This document shows positions 40,923 through 46,543 of a stretch of DNA of 64,000 nucleotides, piece after piece. The stretch is taken from the NCBI GenBank assembly GCA_963737065.1, contig CAVTRC010000001.1, forward strand, positions 1,888,001 to 1,952,000, written 5' to 3'. How positions within the stretch are numbered: the stretch's first letter is position 1; the number at the start of each line of letters is the position of its first letter. The notes under the pieces were generated by a model. The model saw only the letters and a program-made list of their open reading frames with translations. It was not told where the DNA came from and ran no database searches. Made by a program: the position numbers and the translations under genes. The stretch is from Candidatus Eremiobacteria bacterium (GTDB taxonomy: Bacteria; Vulcanimicrobiota; Vulcanimicrobiia; Vulcanimicrobiales; Vulcanimicrobiaceae).

Positions 40923-40976
40923 TTGTGCAATAGCGGATAGGCGACGGTGTTCGTTGTCGCGTACGATAGCCGGGTG

Positions 40977-42141
40977 ATGAAGCTTTTGCGACCTTTCCTT
41001 GCGCTCGTGTTGAGCGCGGGCATTCTTGCCGCGCCCGCTTCCGGTGTGGCGGCAAACGATATTTCGCTTCAGGCGAAGCTGACGCAGATCTTGCAAAACT
41101 ACATAAAGGAGCGTGGCGCTGCCGAGCACATCGATGCGGCGTCGGTGAGCGTTACGACGCTGCACGGTGATGCGCCGACGGTCGCCGCCGTCGGTGCAAC
41201 GCCGTCGACGCTCTTTCAGATCGGCAGCAATACCAAGGCGTTTACGGCCGTGCTTGCGCTTCAGTTGGAAGCCGCCGGCAAGTTGAACATCGATGCGCCG
41301 ATCGGACGATGGCTGCCGCAATATCCAGCGTGGAAAAACATCACCATTCGGCATCTGCTCGACATGACGAGCGGCATCCCGACGTACGATAACGATCCGG
41401 CGTTCCAGCGGCGATATGGAAAGAATCCGTATAAGAACTATTCGGCCGCAGAACTCGTCGCCGCCGTCTATCCGAAGAACGGGCACCCGACGTTCATGCG
41501 CGGTTGGTACTATTCGAACACCGGATACATCCTCACGCAAATGATCCTGGAACGCATTACGGGTCAGTCGTACGGCGACTTACTGCGCACGCGCATTTTC
41601 ACGCCTTACCATCTCGCCAACATGTATTACGATCCGAACGTGCTTCCCGCGAACGTTCAACCGCGCGTCTCGCCGGGATACTTTTTCAATAACGAACCGG
41701 ACAACGCCGGATTGCAGCCGCTCTACAAGCGCGACGTGCGGAACTTGAGCTTGTCGTGGGCGCAGGCGGCGGGCGGAATCGTCGCAACGCCGGCCGCACT
41801 CGAGCGTTGGGTTCAGATCCTTTATGGTCCAACGATGTTGCCGAAAAAACAGCGCGATGAATTGATGTCGACCGTCTCGATGACGACGGGAAAGCCGGTA
41901 GCGCAGGCATCGCAGAGCGCAGCCGCGGACGTTCGGACTAGGCGTCGGCGAAATGTACAAGCCGCCGCTCGGGCGATTCATGTTTTACGAGGGCATGACG
42001 CTCGGATACCGGGTCGTCCATGTGTATGCTCCACAACACAATCTCGTCCTCACCGTTGCGCTGAACAGCCAGCCAAATCCGAATGAGGACCACGTGGGCG
42101 TGCTCATCGATCGCATCGTCAAAGTACTGCCATCGCAATGA
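40977..42141 (+). CDS. Serine hydrolase, beta-lactamase/D-Ala-D-Ala carboxypeptidase family (frameshift near 41920)
   Basis: GSNTK (SxxK), LL.MTSGI, YSNTGY. Confidence 0.88.
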
Positions 42142-42172: not shown

Positions 42173-42201
42173 TTGACGCGTTATCCGGCGCGTGATAGGT
42201 T
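42173..42201 (+). promoter_or_regulatory. Sigma70-type promoter of the cys leader
   Basis: TTGACG (42173) - 17 nt - TAGGTT (42196) with TG extended -10. Confidence 0.6.
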
Positions 42202-42210
42202 AACCGCGTA

Positions 42211-42285
42211 ATGTTTGTTGTGTGTTGTAGCGCATGTCTCTGTTGTTCGACGCCGCCGGCGTGGGATAGCTGTCGCATACCGTAA
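42211..42285 (+). CDS. Cys-rich leader peptide MFVVCCSACLCCSTPPAWDSCRIP
   Basis: 24 codons, 6 Cys all TGT, directly upstream of a terminator and cysH; below ORF-track cutoff. Confidence 0.8.
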   Translation: MFVVCCSACLCCSTPPAWDSCRIP

Positions 42286-42308
42286 CAACACAGGTCTGTA
42301 TCAGCTAT

Positions 42309-42346
42309 AGCCCCCGCCGTCAAATGACAGCGGGGGCTTTCTTTTT
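42309..42346 (+). terminator. Attenuator terminator upstream of cysH
   Basis: agcccccgccgtca-aa-tgacagcgggggct stem followed by ttcttttt. Confidence 0.85.
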
Positions 42347-42357
42347 ACGGGAACGAC

Positions 42358-43086
42358 ATGGGAACGACTCTCGGCGAGAAGCGAGACGCGCTCGGCGTGA
42401 TTTCACGCGCCTTTTCCGATGCGGCGCCTCAAGACATTTTACGATATGCGATCGACGCGCATCCGCGCGTTGCGCTCGCGTGCTCGTTCGGTGGACCGTC
42501 GGGGATGGTGCTGCTTCATATGGCGACGCAGCTCGAACGCGTTGTGGACGTGTACTATCTCGATACGGGATTGCTCTTTCCGCAAACCTACGCGCTCATC
42601 GATGCCGTCCGAAAGCGATATGCGATCGAGCCGCTCGCCGTGCGCCCTTCGCGGTCGGTAGAGCAACAAGCGCAATCGCACGGAGCCGCGCTCTGGCAAC
42701 GCAATCCCGACGCCTGCTGTAGCTTACGCAAAGTCGAACCGCAGCAGGCGTTTCTGTCGCGATACGATGCGTGGATTACCGGCATCCGACGCGATCAGGC
42801 GCAAACGCGTGCGGCAACGCAGCCGATCGTCTGGGACGAAAAGTTTGGTCTCGTAAAAGTGAGCCCGCTTGCGAATTGGGACGAGGGCATGGTATGGGCG
42901 TACATCCGCGCGCACGACGTGCCATACAACGACCTCTACGACTACGGCTACACGAGCATCGGATGTGCGCCGTGCACGCGCGCGATCGCTCCGCACGAGG
43001 ATCCGCGCGCGGGCCGTTGGCCGGGCAACGCCAAAGTGGAGTGCGGTCTTCACGCGCCCCTCACTGACGGGAGGCATGTCGGATGA
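42358..43086 (+). CDS. cysH: Adenylyl-sulfate/phosphoadenylyl-sulfate reductase, Fe-S (APS) type
   Basis: LDTG, CC..RKVEP, TGIRRDQ, SIGCxxC, RAGRW, ECGLH. Confidence 0.93.
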   Translation: MGTTLGEKRDALGVISRAFSDAAPQDILRYAIDAHPRVALACSFGGPSGMVLLHMATQLERVVDVYYLDTGLLFPQTYALIDAVRKRYAIEPLAVRPSRSVEQQAQSHGAALWQRNPDACCSLRKVEPQQAFLSRYDAWITGIRRDQAQTRAATQPIVWDEKFGLVKVSPLANWDEGMVWAYIRAHDVPYNDLYDYGYTSIGCAPCTRAIAPHEDPRAGRWPGNAKVECGLHAPLTDGRHVG

Positions 43087-44804
43087 ACGAAGACCTCGTG
43101 ACGCTCGGCGCCGGTGAAGGCAGCAAAAACGAAGCGATCAAAATCGAAAGCGCGCATTTGCGCGGGACTATCGCGCAAACGATTGCTTCCGATGCGACGC
43201 ATTTCGAAGAAGTCGACGTGCAACTGCTGAAATTCCACGGAAGCTATCAACAAGAAGATCGCGACCGCCGGCGCGAGCGCAAAGAAGCCGGTGCAGAGAA
43301 GGCCTACCAATTCATGGTTCGCTCGCGCATCCCGGGCGGCGCCCTCAACGCCGAGCAATACCTCGCGCACGACGCAATTGCGCACGCGTACGCAAACGGG
43401 TCGATTCGACTGACGACCCGGCAGGGTATCCAGCTCCACGGCGTGCTGATGCACGAGCTGCGTCCGGCGATCAAGGCGATCAACGACTCGTTACTCTCAA
43501 CGCTCGCCGCGTGCGGCGATGTCAATCGAAACGTGATGGCGTGCGCAGCTCCCGCTCGCGACGCCGCGCACGTCGCCGTCTTGGAGTACGCGCGCCGCAT
43601 CGCGATGCATCTCGCTCCGCGCACGCGCGCATATCATGAAATCTGGCTCGAGGGCGAGAAGCTCGAGCTGCAGCACGGTGCCGTCGCAGAGGAGCCGATT
43701 TACGGCGATACGTACTTGCCGCGGAAATTCAAGATCGGCGTCACGATGCCGGACGATAACTGTATCGACGTGTATACGCAAGATATCGGGCTCGTCGCTG
43801 AATTCGACGCACGGGACGGCGTGGCGGGATTCACGGTTCTGATCGGCGGCGGCATGGGTTCCACGCACGGAAAGAGCGAGACATTTCCCCGGCTCGCGAC
43901 GCCGCTCTGCTTTATTCCCGCGGAAGACGCCATAGAAGTCGCCGAAACGATCGTGACGATTCACCGGGACTACGGCGATCGCAAGAATCGACGGCACGCG
44001 CGCATGAAATACGTCGTCGAAGAACGCGGCATCGAATGGTTCCGCGAGCAACTCGAACAGCGCTTGGGGCGGCGCGTTGCCGATCCGCACGATGTGCGCT
44101 TTAGCGCGGCACACGATCATCTCGGATGGCAGCGCCAGCTCGATGCTTCGTGGTCGCTCGGGCTCTTCATCGAAAACGGGCGCATCGTCGACAGCGCCCG
44201 GAGCATGCTGCGCACCGCACTGCGGGAGGTCGTTACCATGCTGCGCCCCGGGTTGCGCATTACGCCCCAGCAGAACCTTATCCTGACCGGCATCCCGGCC
44301 AAGGCGCGCAGACACGTCGAGGCCATGCTCAGACATTACGGCGTTGTTGCCGATGCCGAGGACGTGGGATTGCGACGCGGAGCCATGGCGTGTCCGGCAC
44401 TTCCGACGTGCGGGCTCGCCGTCGCGGAGGCCGAACGCGCGTTGCCGGCGCTCGTGGACCGCGTGGAACGCGACTTGACCGCGCTCGGGCTCGCGGAGGA
44501 ACCGGTCAGCATTCGGATGACCGGTTGCCCGAACGGTTGCGCGCGCCCGCGCATGGGCGACATCGGCATCGTCGGGCGCTCTCTCGGGCTCTACGACATC
44601 TTCCTCGGCGGCGATGCGCCGAACACGCGACTGAATGAACTCTACGCGCAGGGCGTCGCATCCGATGCTATCGTCTCCGTGCTACATGACGCGTTTGAGT
44701 TGTGGAAGCACGAACGCCTACCCGGAGAACGATTCGGCGATTTCGCGCACCGTTTTGGCGTGGGGCGGCTGCGCGAAGCGGCGAAGGCATTACGATCTGC
44801 GTGA
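43083..44804 (+). CDS. cysI: Assimilatory sulfite reductase hemoprotein
   Basis: KFHGSYQQ.DRD, LTTRQ, ACGDVNRN, YLPRKFK, CPALPTC, TGCPNGC. Confidence 0.93.
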   Translation: MNEDLVTLGAGEGSKNEAIKIESAHLRGTIAQTIASDATHFEEVDVQLLKFHGSYQQEDRDRRRERKEAGAEKAYQFMVRSRIPGGALNAEQYLAHDAIAHAYANGSIRLTTRQGIQLHGVLMHELRPAIKAINDSLLSTLAACGDVNRNVMACAAPARDAAHVAVLEYARRIAMHLAPRTRAYHEIWLEGEKLELQHGAVAEEPIYGDTYLPRKFKIGVTMPDDNCIDVYTQDIGLVAEFDARDGVAGFTVLIGGGMGSTHGKSETFPRLATPLCFIPAEDAIEVAETIVTIHRDYGDRKNRRHARMKYVVEERGIEWFREQLEQRLGRRVADPHDVRFSAAHDHLGWQRQLDASWSLGLFIENGRIVDSARSMLRTALREVVTMLRPGLRITPQQNLILTGIPAKARRHVEAMLRHYGVVADAEDVGLRRGAMACPALPTCGLAVAEAERALPALVDRVERDLTALGLAEEPVSIRMTGCPNGCARPRMGDIGIVGRSLGLYDIFLGGDAPNTRLNELYAQGVASDAIVSVLHDAFELWKHERLPGERFGDFAHRFGVGRLREAAKALRSA

Positions 44805-45562
44805 CTGCCGAACTCGTCGTCATCGGCTTTTTTGTCGGAGTGCTCGTCGGGCTAACCGGCGTGGGCGGCGGCAGCATCATGACGCCCGTTCTCGTCGTGC
44901 TAGGAGTCAATCCACTCGTGGCGGTCGGAACCGACTTGCTCTATAGCGTTCCGACGAAACTCTACGGCGCGTACCTTCATGGACGCCAAGGCACGATCGA
45001 CCGGCGGATCGTTTTGCTGCTGCTCTGCGGCGGCGTCCCGGCTGCCATCGCCGGCACCGCGTTCGTTTTGTGGTCGCGCCAGCATGTCGACATCGCAATG
45101 ATCGAATCATGGACGCGACGCGCGATCGGCGCGTCTCTGATGCTTGCGGCAGCGCTAATGCTTGCGCGTCCGCTGATCGCACGCGGTTTGCCGCCGCCAC
45201 CGCCGGCCGCGATACCGGGGTGGCGGATCGCAGCGATCGGCGCTGCCGTCGGTTTTATCGTCACGCTGACGTCGATCGGCAGCGGATCGCTGACGCTCCC
45301 GCTGCTCTCGATGGCCCTGCCGTCGATCGGACTCGCGCGCCTCGTCGGTTCGGACATTGCGTTCGCGGCTCTGCTTATTCCGACGGCGGCCGTCGGACGC
45401 TGGTCGATGGGCGACGTGAACCTCGGCATCGCGATCGCGCTGCTTACCGGATCGCTGCCCGGCATTTTCGTCGGAACGAAATTGTGCGCACGCTTGCAGA
45501 CCCGCTGGCTGCGTCCCGCCGTTGCGCTCACCCTTGTTTTCGTCGGCTCACGTCTAATCTAG
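44801..45562 (+). CDS. TauE/SafE family sulfur-oxyanion transporter
   Basis: GLTGVGGGSIMTP, AVGTDL, TSIGSG, LVGSD, GSLPG; GTGA overlap with cysI stop. Confidence 0.9.
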   Translation: MTAELVVIGFFVGVLVGLTGVGGGSIMTPVLVVLGVNPLVAVGTDLLYSVPTKLYGAYLHGRQGTIDRRIVLLLLCGGVPAAIAGTAFVLWSRQHVDIAMIESWTRRAIGASLMLAAALMLARPLIARGLPPPPPAAIPGWRIAAIGAAVGFIVTLTSIGSGSLTLPLLSMALPSIGLARLVGSDIAFAALLIPTAAVGRWSMGDVNLGIAIALLTGSLPGIFVGTKLCARLQTRWLRPAVALTLVFVGSRLI

Positions 45563-45776: not shown

Positions 45777-46060
45777 ATGGTGCTCGGACCCCAGCGTAAA
45801 ACAGGAGAGATTTAATGCTCGCCTGTCTGAAGAACAGAAAGCAGATACTTCAACGAGCGGCTGACCTTCAGGGCATGTCTTTGTCGGATTTTGTCCTAAG
45901 CTCGGCGCATGATGAAGCACTTCGGATTATCGAAGCGCATGAAATTATACGCCTTTCTAAGCGCGACAGCGAGGCGTTTTTGCAGGCTCTTGAATCCCCG
46001 CCTGCTGCAAGTAGACATGTGATCGAGCGATTTGCTAAGGCGGGGAAGCAACGCGCGTAA
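45777..46060 (+). CDS. DUF1778 (RHH) antitoxin (indels in A-runs near 45800 and 45840)
   Basis: ERFNARLSEEQK/QILQRAADLQGMSLSDFVL..A...A..II......LS.RD...F..AL..PP. Confidence 0.82.
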
Positions 46061-46543
46061 GTGATCGAAGGCATAGCCTTTCAGCCGCTCGCGAAGTATC
46101 ACGACCGAGCGGCTTTTACTCGTTCCGGACAAGAGTGCGCGATTCTTCAGGAATATTTGAGGAACGATGCGCGCGGGCCCCGGGAACACCGAAAACACGT
46201 AACCGCTCTGCATGTGATGGTGCAAGAATCGGCACCATCGCTTATTTGTGCCTACTTTACGCTCTCTAGCGCGAGTCTAAGAATTGAAGAATTGCGCAAA
46301 AATATTGTGAAGGGGTTGCCGACGTATCGCATGATGCCGGCTTTAAAACTCGGGCGCATGGCTGTTGACGATCGTTTTCGTGCGCACGACCTTGGCACCG
46401 TACTTATACAGGAGGCGTTCAAGATCGCGGTTCGATTAAAGGATGCCGTTGGCTTTGTTGCTATGCTCGCGGACGCGAAGACTGACAACCTAGTCAACTA
46501 CTATCGCTTTTCATCATGCAGCCCACGATGGAGCAGATACTAA
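46061..46543 (+). CDS. GNAT toxin (AtaT/TacT-like), C-terminus atypical
   Basis: HDR..F..G...L..YL, YFTLS, P..KLGRMAVD; directly after DUF1778. Confidence 0.8.
   Translation: MIEGIAFQPLAKYHDRAAFTRSGQECAILQEYLRNDARGPREHRKHVTALHVMVQESAPSLICAYFTLSSASLRIEELRKNIVKGLPTYRMMPALKLGRMAVDDRFRAHDLGTVLIQEAFKIAVRLKDAVGFVAMLADAKTDNLVNYYRFSSCSPRWSRY

Follow-up and report, generated by a model that had tools for sequence, protein, structure and literature searches.

Control of sulfate assimilation is usually ascribed to transcription factors (CysB, CymR, CysR), to T-boxes and S-boxes in Firmicutes, or to translational attenuation in mycobacteria. Classical transcription attenuators such as trpL, hisL, leuL, thrL, pheL and ilvL of E. 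coli and Salmonella stand in front of biosynthetic operons and combine a short upstream open reading frame (uORF) rich in codons for the end product with three RNA helices, namely a protector, an antiterminator and an intrinsic terminator, a mechanism summarised in 10.1101/834739 and PMC4007540. For cysteine, a predicted leader of Rhodobacterales, uORFC-8-2, places tandem Cys codons and a U-tailed intrinsic terminator before cysS (Brewer et al. 2021, PMC8632094). Leaderless leaders are known from Deinococcus deserti, whose set of 14 was assigned to pathways and has a two-Cys member before cysS (de Groot et al. 2014, PMC4007540, Table S9). In mycobacteria, polycysteine leaderless sORFs exert translational control by sequestration of the Shine-Dalgarno (SD) sequence and were shown not to act by termination (Canestrari et al., 10.1101/834739); mycobacterial Cys leaders without a conserved terminator are reported in the accessible sections of Seliverstov et al. 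2005 (PMC1262725), and the translational reading is repeated in those of PMC13236596. The preliminary description of the present locus had named mycobacterial polycysteine leaderless attenuators as established, which agrees with 10.1101/834739, the proven case being translational; in its accessible text, this 2020 paper presents itself as the first description of cysteine attenuation mediated by a uORF. Our search of the open-access literature, with subscription journals mostly outside its scope, returned no paper on a terminator-type Cys leader in this phylum or ahead of genes for sulfate assimilation, and the main text of PMC2965389 outside its references held no cysteine passage. The same description had called the form unfamiliar, which stands for sulfate-assimilation genes and for the phylum, but not for the combination of Cys codons with an intrinsic terminator, already predicted before cysS (PMC8632094).

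The locus examined here lies in a window of 64,000 nucleotides from a Candidatus Eremiobacteria genome (contig CAVTRC010000001.1, positions 1,888,001 to 1,952,000), where a Cys-rich leader precedes cysH-cysI-tauE; at 49 of 73 cysH loci examined in the family, the sulfate operon opens with a leader of this design. As in classical attenuators, a uORF (whose translation we infer) heads an amino acid biosynthetic operon, the end-product codons are conserved (49/73 loci; in-frame Cys 200/1178; pathway-matched siblings), an intrinsic terminator lies between uORF and first gene, and an antiterminator exclusive with the terminator is computed to be exposed by a stall and covered by a ribosome at the stop. 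By comparison and modelling, four of the five features that define a classical attenuator thus appear to be present, the remaining one being amino-acid- and translation-dependent termination. The differences are that here cysteine would be sensed and sulfate reduction controlled, and that the leader ORF is leaderless, with no Shine-Dalgarno sequence.

Compared by its description, uORFC-8-2 follows the same predicted logic but occurs only before cysS, in another phylum and with UGC dominant where UGU is dominant here, and the accessible description names no antiterminator, whereas one is predicted here. The 49 leaders studied here are followed by cysH in 39 cases, cysI in 7 and tauE in 3. With the D. 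deserti leaders they share a leader set fitted to pathways and, by prediction, a start codon at the transcription start; in that species, however, the Cys leader precedes cysS, 0/14 leaders in Table S9 precede sulfate-assimilation genes, and the accessible description is without RNA structures, which are computed here. The mycobacterial polycysteine sORFs are likewise leaderless and Cys-rich, precede cysteine-pathway operons and occur at several loci per genome as a regulon, and in our set the distance from -10 to start codon is 5-10 nt in 49/49 leaders (mode 8), with GGAG or GAGG absent from the 14 nt 5' of the start codon in all 49 and the transcription start itself putative. Here, however, the Cys codons occupy the middle of the ORF, with 7-15 codons left to the stop; in the window they pair within 42221-42292 and not with the cysH start region; a terminator is present, and conserved. 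Membership in the mycobacterial class was rejected, as that class acts on translation without termination.

Architecture of the cysH leader

The elements of the leader and its operon in the window are as follows.

42173..42201, + strand: sigma-70-type promoter, 17-nt spacer ending in the TG of an extended -10
42173-42178, + strand: -35 element TTGACG, read by eye
42193-42194, + strand: TG of the extended -10, read by eye
42196-42201, + strand: -10 element TAGGTT, read by eye
42211..42285, + strand: leader ORF of 24 codons, leaderless or near-leaderless, from open-frame reading
42221..42292, + strand: predicted protector (1:2-like) hairpin, -34.4 kcal/mol, contained in both the MFE and the centroid structure of the whole leader
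42241..42246, + strand: Cys11-Cys12 codon pair, putative sensing site, folding-energy peak with the A-site here
42257..42319, + strand: antiterminator helix, core CGGCG:CGCCG, 42257-72 pairing with 42302-19
42309..42346, + strand: intrinsic terminator, GC-rich hairpin 42309-42338 (-24.5 kcal/mol) and U-tract
42358..43086, + strand: cysH, (phospho)adenosine-phosphosulfate reductase (PRK02090 244 bits, cut-off 154; TIGR00434 229, cut-off 165)
43083..44804, + strand: cysI/sir, assimilatory sulfite reductase hemoprotein (PRK13504 758 bits, cut-off 457)
44702..45562, + strand: tauE, TauE/SafE-family permease (PF01925 147 bits)

The leader ATG at 42211 lies 9 nt past the -10, and transcription would start at about 42208-42211, at or just 5' of this ATG. 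Coordinates and codon count agree with the near-leaderless start and the six TGT Cys codons of the preliminary description: Cys occupies codons 5, 6, 9, 11, 12 and 21, and TGT is used in 6/6, set beside 519/2269 Cys codons in long ORFs of the host genome. The host genome encodes one copy of tRNA-Cys(GCA), and wobble reading of UGU by this single tRNA may sharpen sensing; alternatively, the TGT bias may serve protector pairing. Of 548 short ORFs with promoter-like surroundings in the host genome, about 100 contain at least two Cys, and among those the cysH leader is the only one with a TTGACG promoter and a terminator together. A consensus promoter and terminator scan of the window listed 0 promoters and also missed the leader's terminator; because this simple scanner found neither, the two elements rest on inspection, folding and conservation.

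The full leader folds at z = -5.3, with 0/200 shuffles equally stable. In the predicted fold, the codons for Cys11-12 base-pair with the antiterminator 5' strand inside the protector hairpin, which is thereby predicted to hide that strand while the ORF is unoccupied. Pairing of 42221-42228 with 42285-42292, put forward earlier as a helix of its own, does form, not as an isolated 8-bp helix but as the outer end of the protector. The proposed pairing of 42258-42272 with 42302-42318 was likewise recovered, comprising 42257-61:42315-19, 42263-65:42311-13 and 42266-72:42302-08, interrupted by a single mismatch and a bulge of 2 nt, at -30.1 kcal/mol (fold of 42254-42322); in the window, 0/30 shuffles gave an antiterminator as strong. 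The terminator was correctly described as strong and as ending 11 nt 5' of cysH, its U-tract running to 42346 and the cysH ATG lying at 42358. The cysH ribosome-binding site is outside both terminator and antiterminator stems, and one MFE pairs 42296-300 with 42346-50, adjoining this site. An Rfam scan of the window returned only a tRNA at gathering score and no family at the leader; 11 sub-threshold matches at the leader were rejected as generic hairpins, those with the best E-values lying far below cut-off, and a T-box or SAM riboswitch identity was rejected, no Rfam model matching there.

Conservation across the family

A cysH profile matched 73/348 family genomes (a tally that includes G261), and we examined 73 loci in 72 genomes, made up of 71 of the 73 matching genomes (minus G261 and G198), a further paralogue from G314, and G019. 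A contig search also returned 17 distant cysH loci belonging to other phyla, which lie outside this set. A leader was called by rule where a promoter motif was followed by ATG or GTG 5-11 nt past the -10, opening an ORF of 10-40 codons with at least two Cys, and by this rule 49/73 loci carry one at the head of the sulfate operon. The remaining 24, sorted by eye, comprise 4 distant paralogues, 6 loci cut by contig ends, 10 internal to another operon or back-to-back with cysD, and 4 that have their own promoter but lack a leader (L003, L006, L046, L050). When the rule was applied to cysH loci without the Cys filter, 49 of 56 candidates still had at least two Cys (47 at operon heads), compared with about 100/548 genome-wide, so the filter does not create the 49-locus result.

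The 49 leader peptides span 19-28 codons, and their sequences and Cys spacing diverge freely, with a CC pair in 41/49. Cys codons nevertheless concentrate in frame (200/1178 vs. 86/1129 and 32/1129 in the other two frames), and TGT accounts for 154/200 of them vs. 66/440 in cysH and cysI of the same loci. The -35 starts with TTGAC in 46/49 and TG stands 5' of the -10 in 46/49. Terminators have a median of -21.8 kcal/mol, with at least 5 U in the 8 nt past the hairpin in 44/49 and weak U-tracts in 5/49. Between the anchor (last core) Cys and the terminator lie 55-75 nt in 48/48 leaders, L079 having been dropped from this and the other 48-locus analyses, and from the alignment, after the terminator picker took a wrong hairpin.

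We assessed covariation on a MAFFT alignment of the 48 leaders. In the terminator, 93% of cells are paired, with 34 double changes and 0/500 shuffles as high; in the antiterminator, 71% of cells are paired (37-51% when the helix is slid) and 29 cells show double changes; covariation there is modest, 1-7/500 shuffles reaching three of five measures (0-7/500 overall). These values are inflated by related genomes, relatives not being independent. The alignment contains no conserved aptamer-like sequence. The check suggested beforehand, Cys-codon conservation and covariation near cysH in relatives, was thus answered in 49/73 loci and for both helices, and the leader is real and conserved, and very probably functional.

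Several individual loci deserve mention. Repeated TTAA-centred inverted motifs, possibly a transcription-factor site, lie 5' of the promoter in three loci without a leader, L006 (G009), L046 (G252) and L050 (G232), and also in L037 and L038, where a leader is present. In L006 and L046, cysH itself looks leaderless. In L013 (G019:C2:34435-34563) the leader is intact and cysH is a short 5' remnant before cysI.

Ribosome position and terminator trapping

To follow the switch along the ORF, each leader RNA was folded up to the terminator loop minus the ribosome footprint (13 nt from the A-site codon start; a ribosome covers up to 12 nt past the stop, PMC4833913), and we calculated the energy gained by pairing the terminator 5' arm. 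This truncated-transcript measure was used since the probability of the terminator at equilibrium hardly differs between ribosome positions: even where a ribosome occupies a Cys codon, the full-length RNA at equilibrium forms the terminator (with probability 1.0 for the window and 0.98 as the median). Because that probability is nearly the same in every state, the switch must be kinetic.

Across the 49 leaders, median trapping of the 5' arm was -4.8 kcal/mol with no ribosome, -8.8 at the first Cys, -13.6 at the last Cys and -2.4 at the stop. When profiles were aligned on the anchor Cys, the median peaked at position 0 (-13.8) and fell to -4.2 six codons on, and the peak lay within one codon of a Cys in 35/48 leaders (16.7 expected by position). 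The median z against shuffles was -3.2 (48 leaders, with the best Cys picked per locus before the shuffle test). A swap test was only weakly discriminating, as the cognate upstream segment outperformed every one of 15 non-cognate segments at just 9/48 loci (medians -14.0 vs. -10.4), the antiterminator core being common to loci.

In the window, trapping reached -7.0/-6.2 kcal/mol at Cys5-6, -6.9 at Cys9 and -13.5/-14.5 at Cys11-12, then dropped to -0.4 at codon 15, -3.5 at Cys21 and -1.1 at the stop, and with footprints of 10-17 nt the peak stayed at codons 10-13. These models point to Cys11-12 (and partly Cys9) as the sensing codons, with about half the effect at Cys5-6 and almost none at Cys21. 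Cys11-12 would be strongest because a stall at Cys5-6 leaves the protector partly intact and one at Cys11-12 removes it. The earlier proposal that a stall on the Cys pairs frees the antiterminator therefore holds, in these models, for Cys11-12 but not for all six codons equally. The untranslated, truncated window RNA can also fold the antiterminator (in its MFE, with trapping of -5.6), which makes the untranslated default equivocal.

Collectively, conservation in 49/73 loci, the position-dependent switch calculation and covariation in both helices support the trp-style logic proposed in the preliminary description, and we assign a probability of roughly 0.88 to the reading, modelled in its mechanics, that the element is a ribosome-mediated, trp-style, leaderless transcription attenuator sensing the supply of Cys-tRNA(Cys). 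Transcription would start at or just 5' of the ATG and the leaderless mRNA would be translated directly. With cysteine plentiful, the ribosome would pass the Cys codons, reach the stop and cover 42257-72, letting the terminator form and ending the transcript near 42346. With cysteine short, it would stall on the TGT-TGT of codons 11-12, blocking the protector hairpin and leaving 42257-72 exposed; this strand would then pair with the terminator 5' arm ahead of 3' arm synthesis, and with the 5' arm trapped, RNA polymerase would read into cysH-cysI-tauE.

If so, a conserved terminator/antiterminator form on cysH-cysI would fill the place of cysteine in the classical attenuator series, applying a textbook principle to an amino acid for which the terminator form is predicted and not yet experimentally proven, and would couple leaderless translation with transcription termination. 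The surprise is moderate, since the principle is textbook. The element would also offer a compact cysteine sensor of about 175 nt testable in a laboratory host.

Sibling leaders matched by a covariance model

We built a covariance model on the promoter, leader and terminator of the Cys leaders, which matched in 137/151 family genomes (548 matches, a tally that includes weak ones in G025 and G027) and in 10/24 genomes from two other families of the class. We inspected 90 matches outside the training set, 2 from the host genome and the rest among the best-scoring of 150 listed (548 in total), and 87/90 had a leaderless ORF. The model, trained on Cys leaders, favours them, and the non-Cys matches are the informative part.

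Among these 90 inspected matches, with no amino acid filter applied, at least two Cys were present in 10/10 leaders before cysI and in 17/17 before NMT1/SsuA-like binding proteins, as well as, once or twice each, before cysK, a protein of sulfate-binding-like type, an NlpA/MetQ lipoprotein, a CysA-like ATPase, a peroxiredoxin, DUF3034 and a nitrogenase-component-1-like oxidoreductase; five further Cys leaders have no assigned downstream gene. Met-rich leaders, with or without Cys, precede Cys/Met PLP enzymes (10 cases, 17% Met) and homoserine dehydrogenase (5). At least two Cys were found in 0/14 leaders before ilvB and 0/4 before ilvC, which are instead 44-48% Leu/Val/Ile, and in 1/3 before leuA, while a Thr run precedes a thrC-like gene and an aromatic run precedes pheA-aroF. 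The amino acid runs of the leaders (Cys, Met/Cys, Leu/Val/Ile, Thr, aromatic) fit the downstream pathway, providing an internal control.

We lean toward a genome-wide sulfur-starvation regulon of leaderless Cys and Met/Cys attenuators on a shared, UGU-tuned scaffold, reaching some 10 or more matches in a genome, which would stand before sulfate reduction genes, sulfonate, sulfate and methionine transporters, cysK, hom-metY, peroxiredoxin, a nitrogenase-component-1-like oxidoreductase and DUF3034; under this proposal leader composition would predict the function of unknown genes, and the scaffold would have been repeatedly re-coded for other amino acids. In this soil phylum, scarcely represented in culture, sibling leaders would then point to sulfur-starvation roles for genes of unknown function.

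Particular siblings illustrate the range of downstream genes. Cys leaders stand before AhpC/TSA peroxiredoxin in L144 (G342) and L186 (G351), and before DUF3034 proteins in L140 (G010) and L210 (G210), which suggests a role for DUF3034 under sulfur limitation. Cys-rich leaders L182 and L209 (both G082) precede nitrogenase-component-1-type oxidoreductases (PF00148), which we take to be possibly sulfur-scavenging nitrogenase-like enzymes, e.g., methylthio-alkane reductase. Divergent back-to-back promoters, each with its own leader, pair Cys with Leu/Val (L117/L136, G193:C28), Leu/Val with Leu (L139/L148, G251:C115) and Met with Cys (L147/L172, G082:C2). Outside the family, the Cys/Met leaders L218 (G045) and L225 (G038), from the other two families in the class, precede homoserine dehydrogenase-like and solute-symporter-like genes (named by eye).

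The host genome (G000) has three full-length matches to the model at E <= 0.03. Besides the cysH leader, three further putative leader-peptide attenuators of the leaderless kind were noted in this genome. A Met/Cys-rich leader at C1:438142-438324 (L101) precedes hom (homoserine dehydrogenase), and a Tyr-run leader at C1:2355467-2355641 (L102) precedes a 250-aa protein with no Pfam match. A Trp-run leaderless leader at C2:217345 stands before a gene that we take, from a sequence motif, to be DAHP-synthase-like.

Alternative explanations

Attenuation by termination has to be weighed against a Cys-sensing leader whose hairpin is incidental and which acts either on translation, with the ribosome-binding site of cysH sequestered, or by way of Rho polarity. 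The only experimentally proven Cys attenuators, the mycobacterial ones, act in this way (10.1101/834739, accessible sections), the host genome encodes Rho, a few members (L083, L058, L068, L070) have weak U-tracts, and the MFE pairing of 42296-300 with 42346-50 falls beside the cysH ribosome-binding site. That site, however, is not within the terminator or antiterminator stems, 44/49 hairpins carry a U-tract and terminator covariation is strong, and the aligned part of the first gene starts at least 8 nt past the hairpin in 48/49 loci, often far more. We consider this account unlikely.

A sensing or effector role for the Cys-rich peptide itself, through metal or thiol binding or through nascent-chain arrest by a sulfur metabolite rather than tRNA charging, is more improbable still. 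CC and CxC clusters do resemble metal-binding mini-proteins, and peroxiredoxins lie downstream of some sibling leaders; yet the peptides are conserved only in Cys content, with Cys spacing free, what is conserved instead is TGT codon choice and distance to the terminator, and sibling leaders exchange the amino acid to fit the pathway. The faintest chance goes to a ligand- or protein-binding RNA leader (a riboswitch, a T-box or a protein-controlled antiterminator) whose UGU-rich strand would yield the ORF as a by-product: such a strand could partly explain the TGT bias, as the UGU repeats pair in a long hairpin, but the start 5-10 nt from the -10, the open frame and the in-frame Cys enrichment hold across 49/49 leaders, Rfam yields no match at gathering score (the best by E-value being generic hairpins far below cut-off), and the leaders carry no conserved aptamer-like sequence.

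Operon and genomic surroundings

Downstream of the leader, the stops and starts of cysH, cysI and tauE overlap or adjoin, the true start of the TauE/SafE gene probably lying near 44800. A query with PF01747 did not recover Sat from the host genome, which is 95% complete, and cysK, cysDN and two PLP enzymes of this genome had no Cys leader in the roughly 380-500 nt upstream inspected by eye. The cysD-cysN genes lie far from cysH-cysI, at G000 C1:215300-218000, beside sulfotransferase/glycosyltransferase-like ORFs (named by eye).

The promoter is preceded in the window by a beta-lactamase-family serine hydrolase-like gene (40947-42141) whose NCBIfam matches are all far below cut-off, and whose C-terminal part is in another frame (41953-42141), apparently through a frameshift or sequencing error. 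Right after the cys operon, at 45815-46543, a TacA1-like antitoxin (PF08681) is followed by a probable GNAT toxin gene, called from its position and without a family match, the pair forming a type II toxin-antitoxin system.
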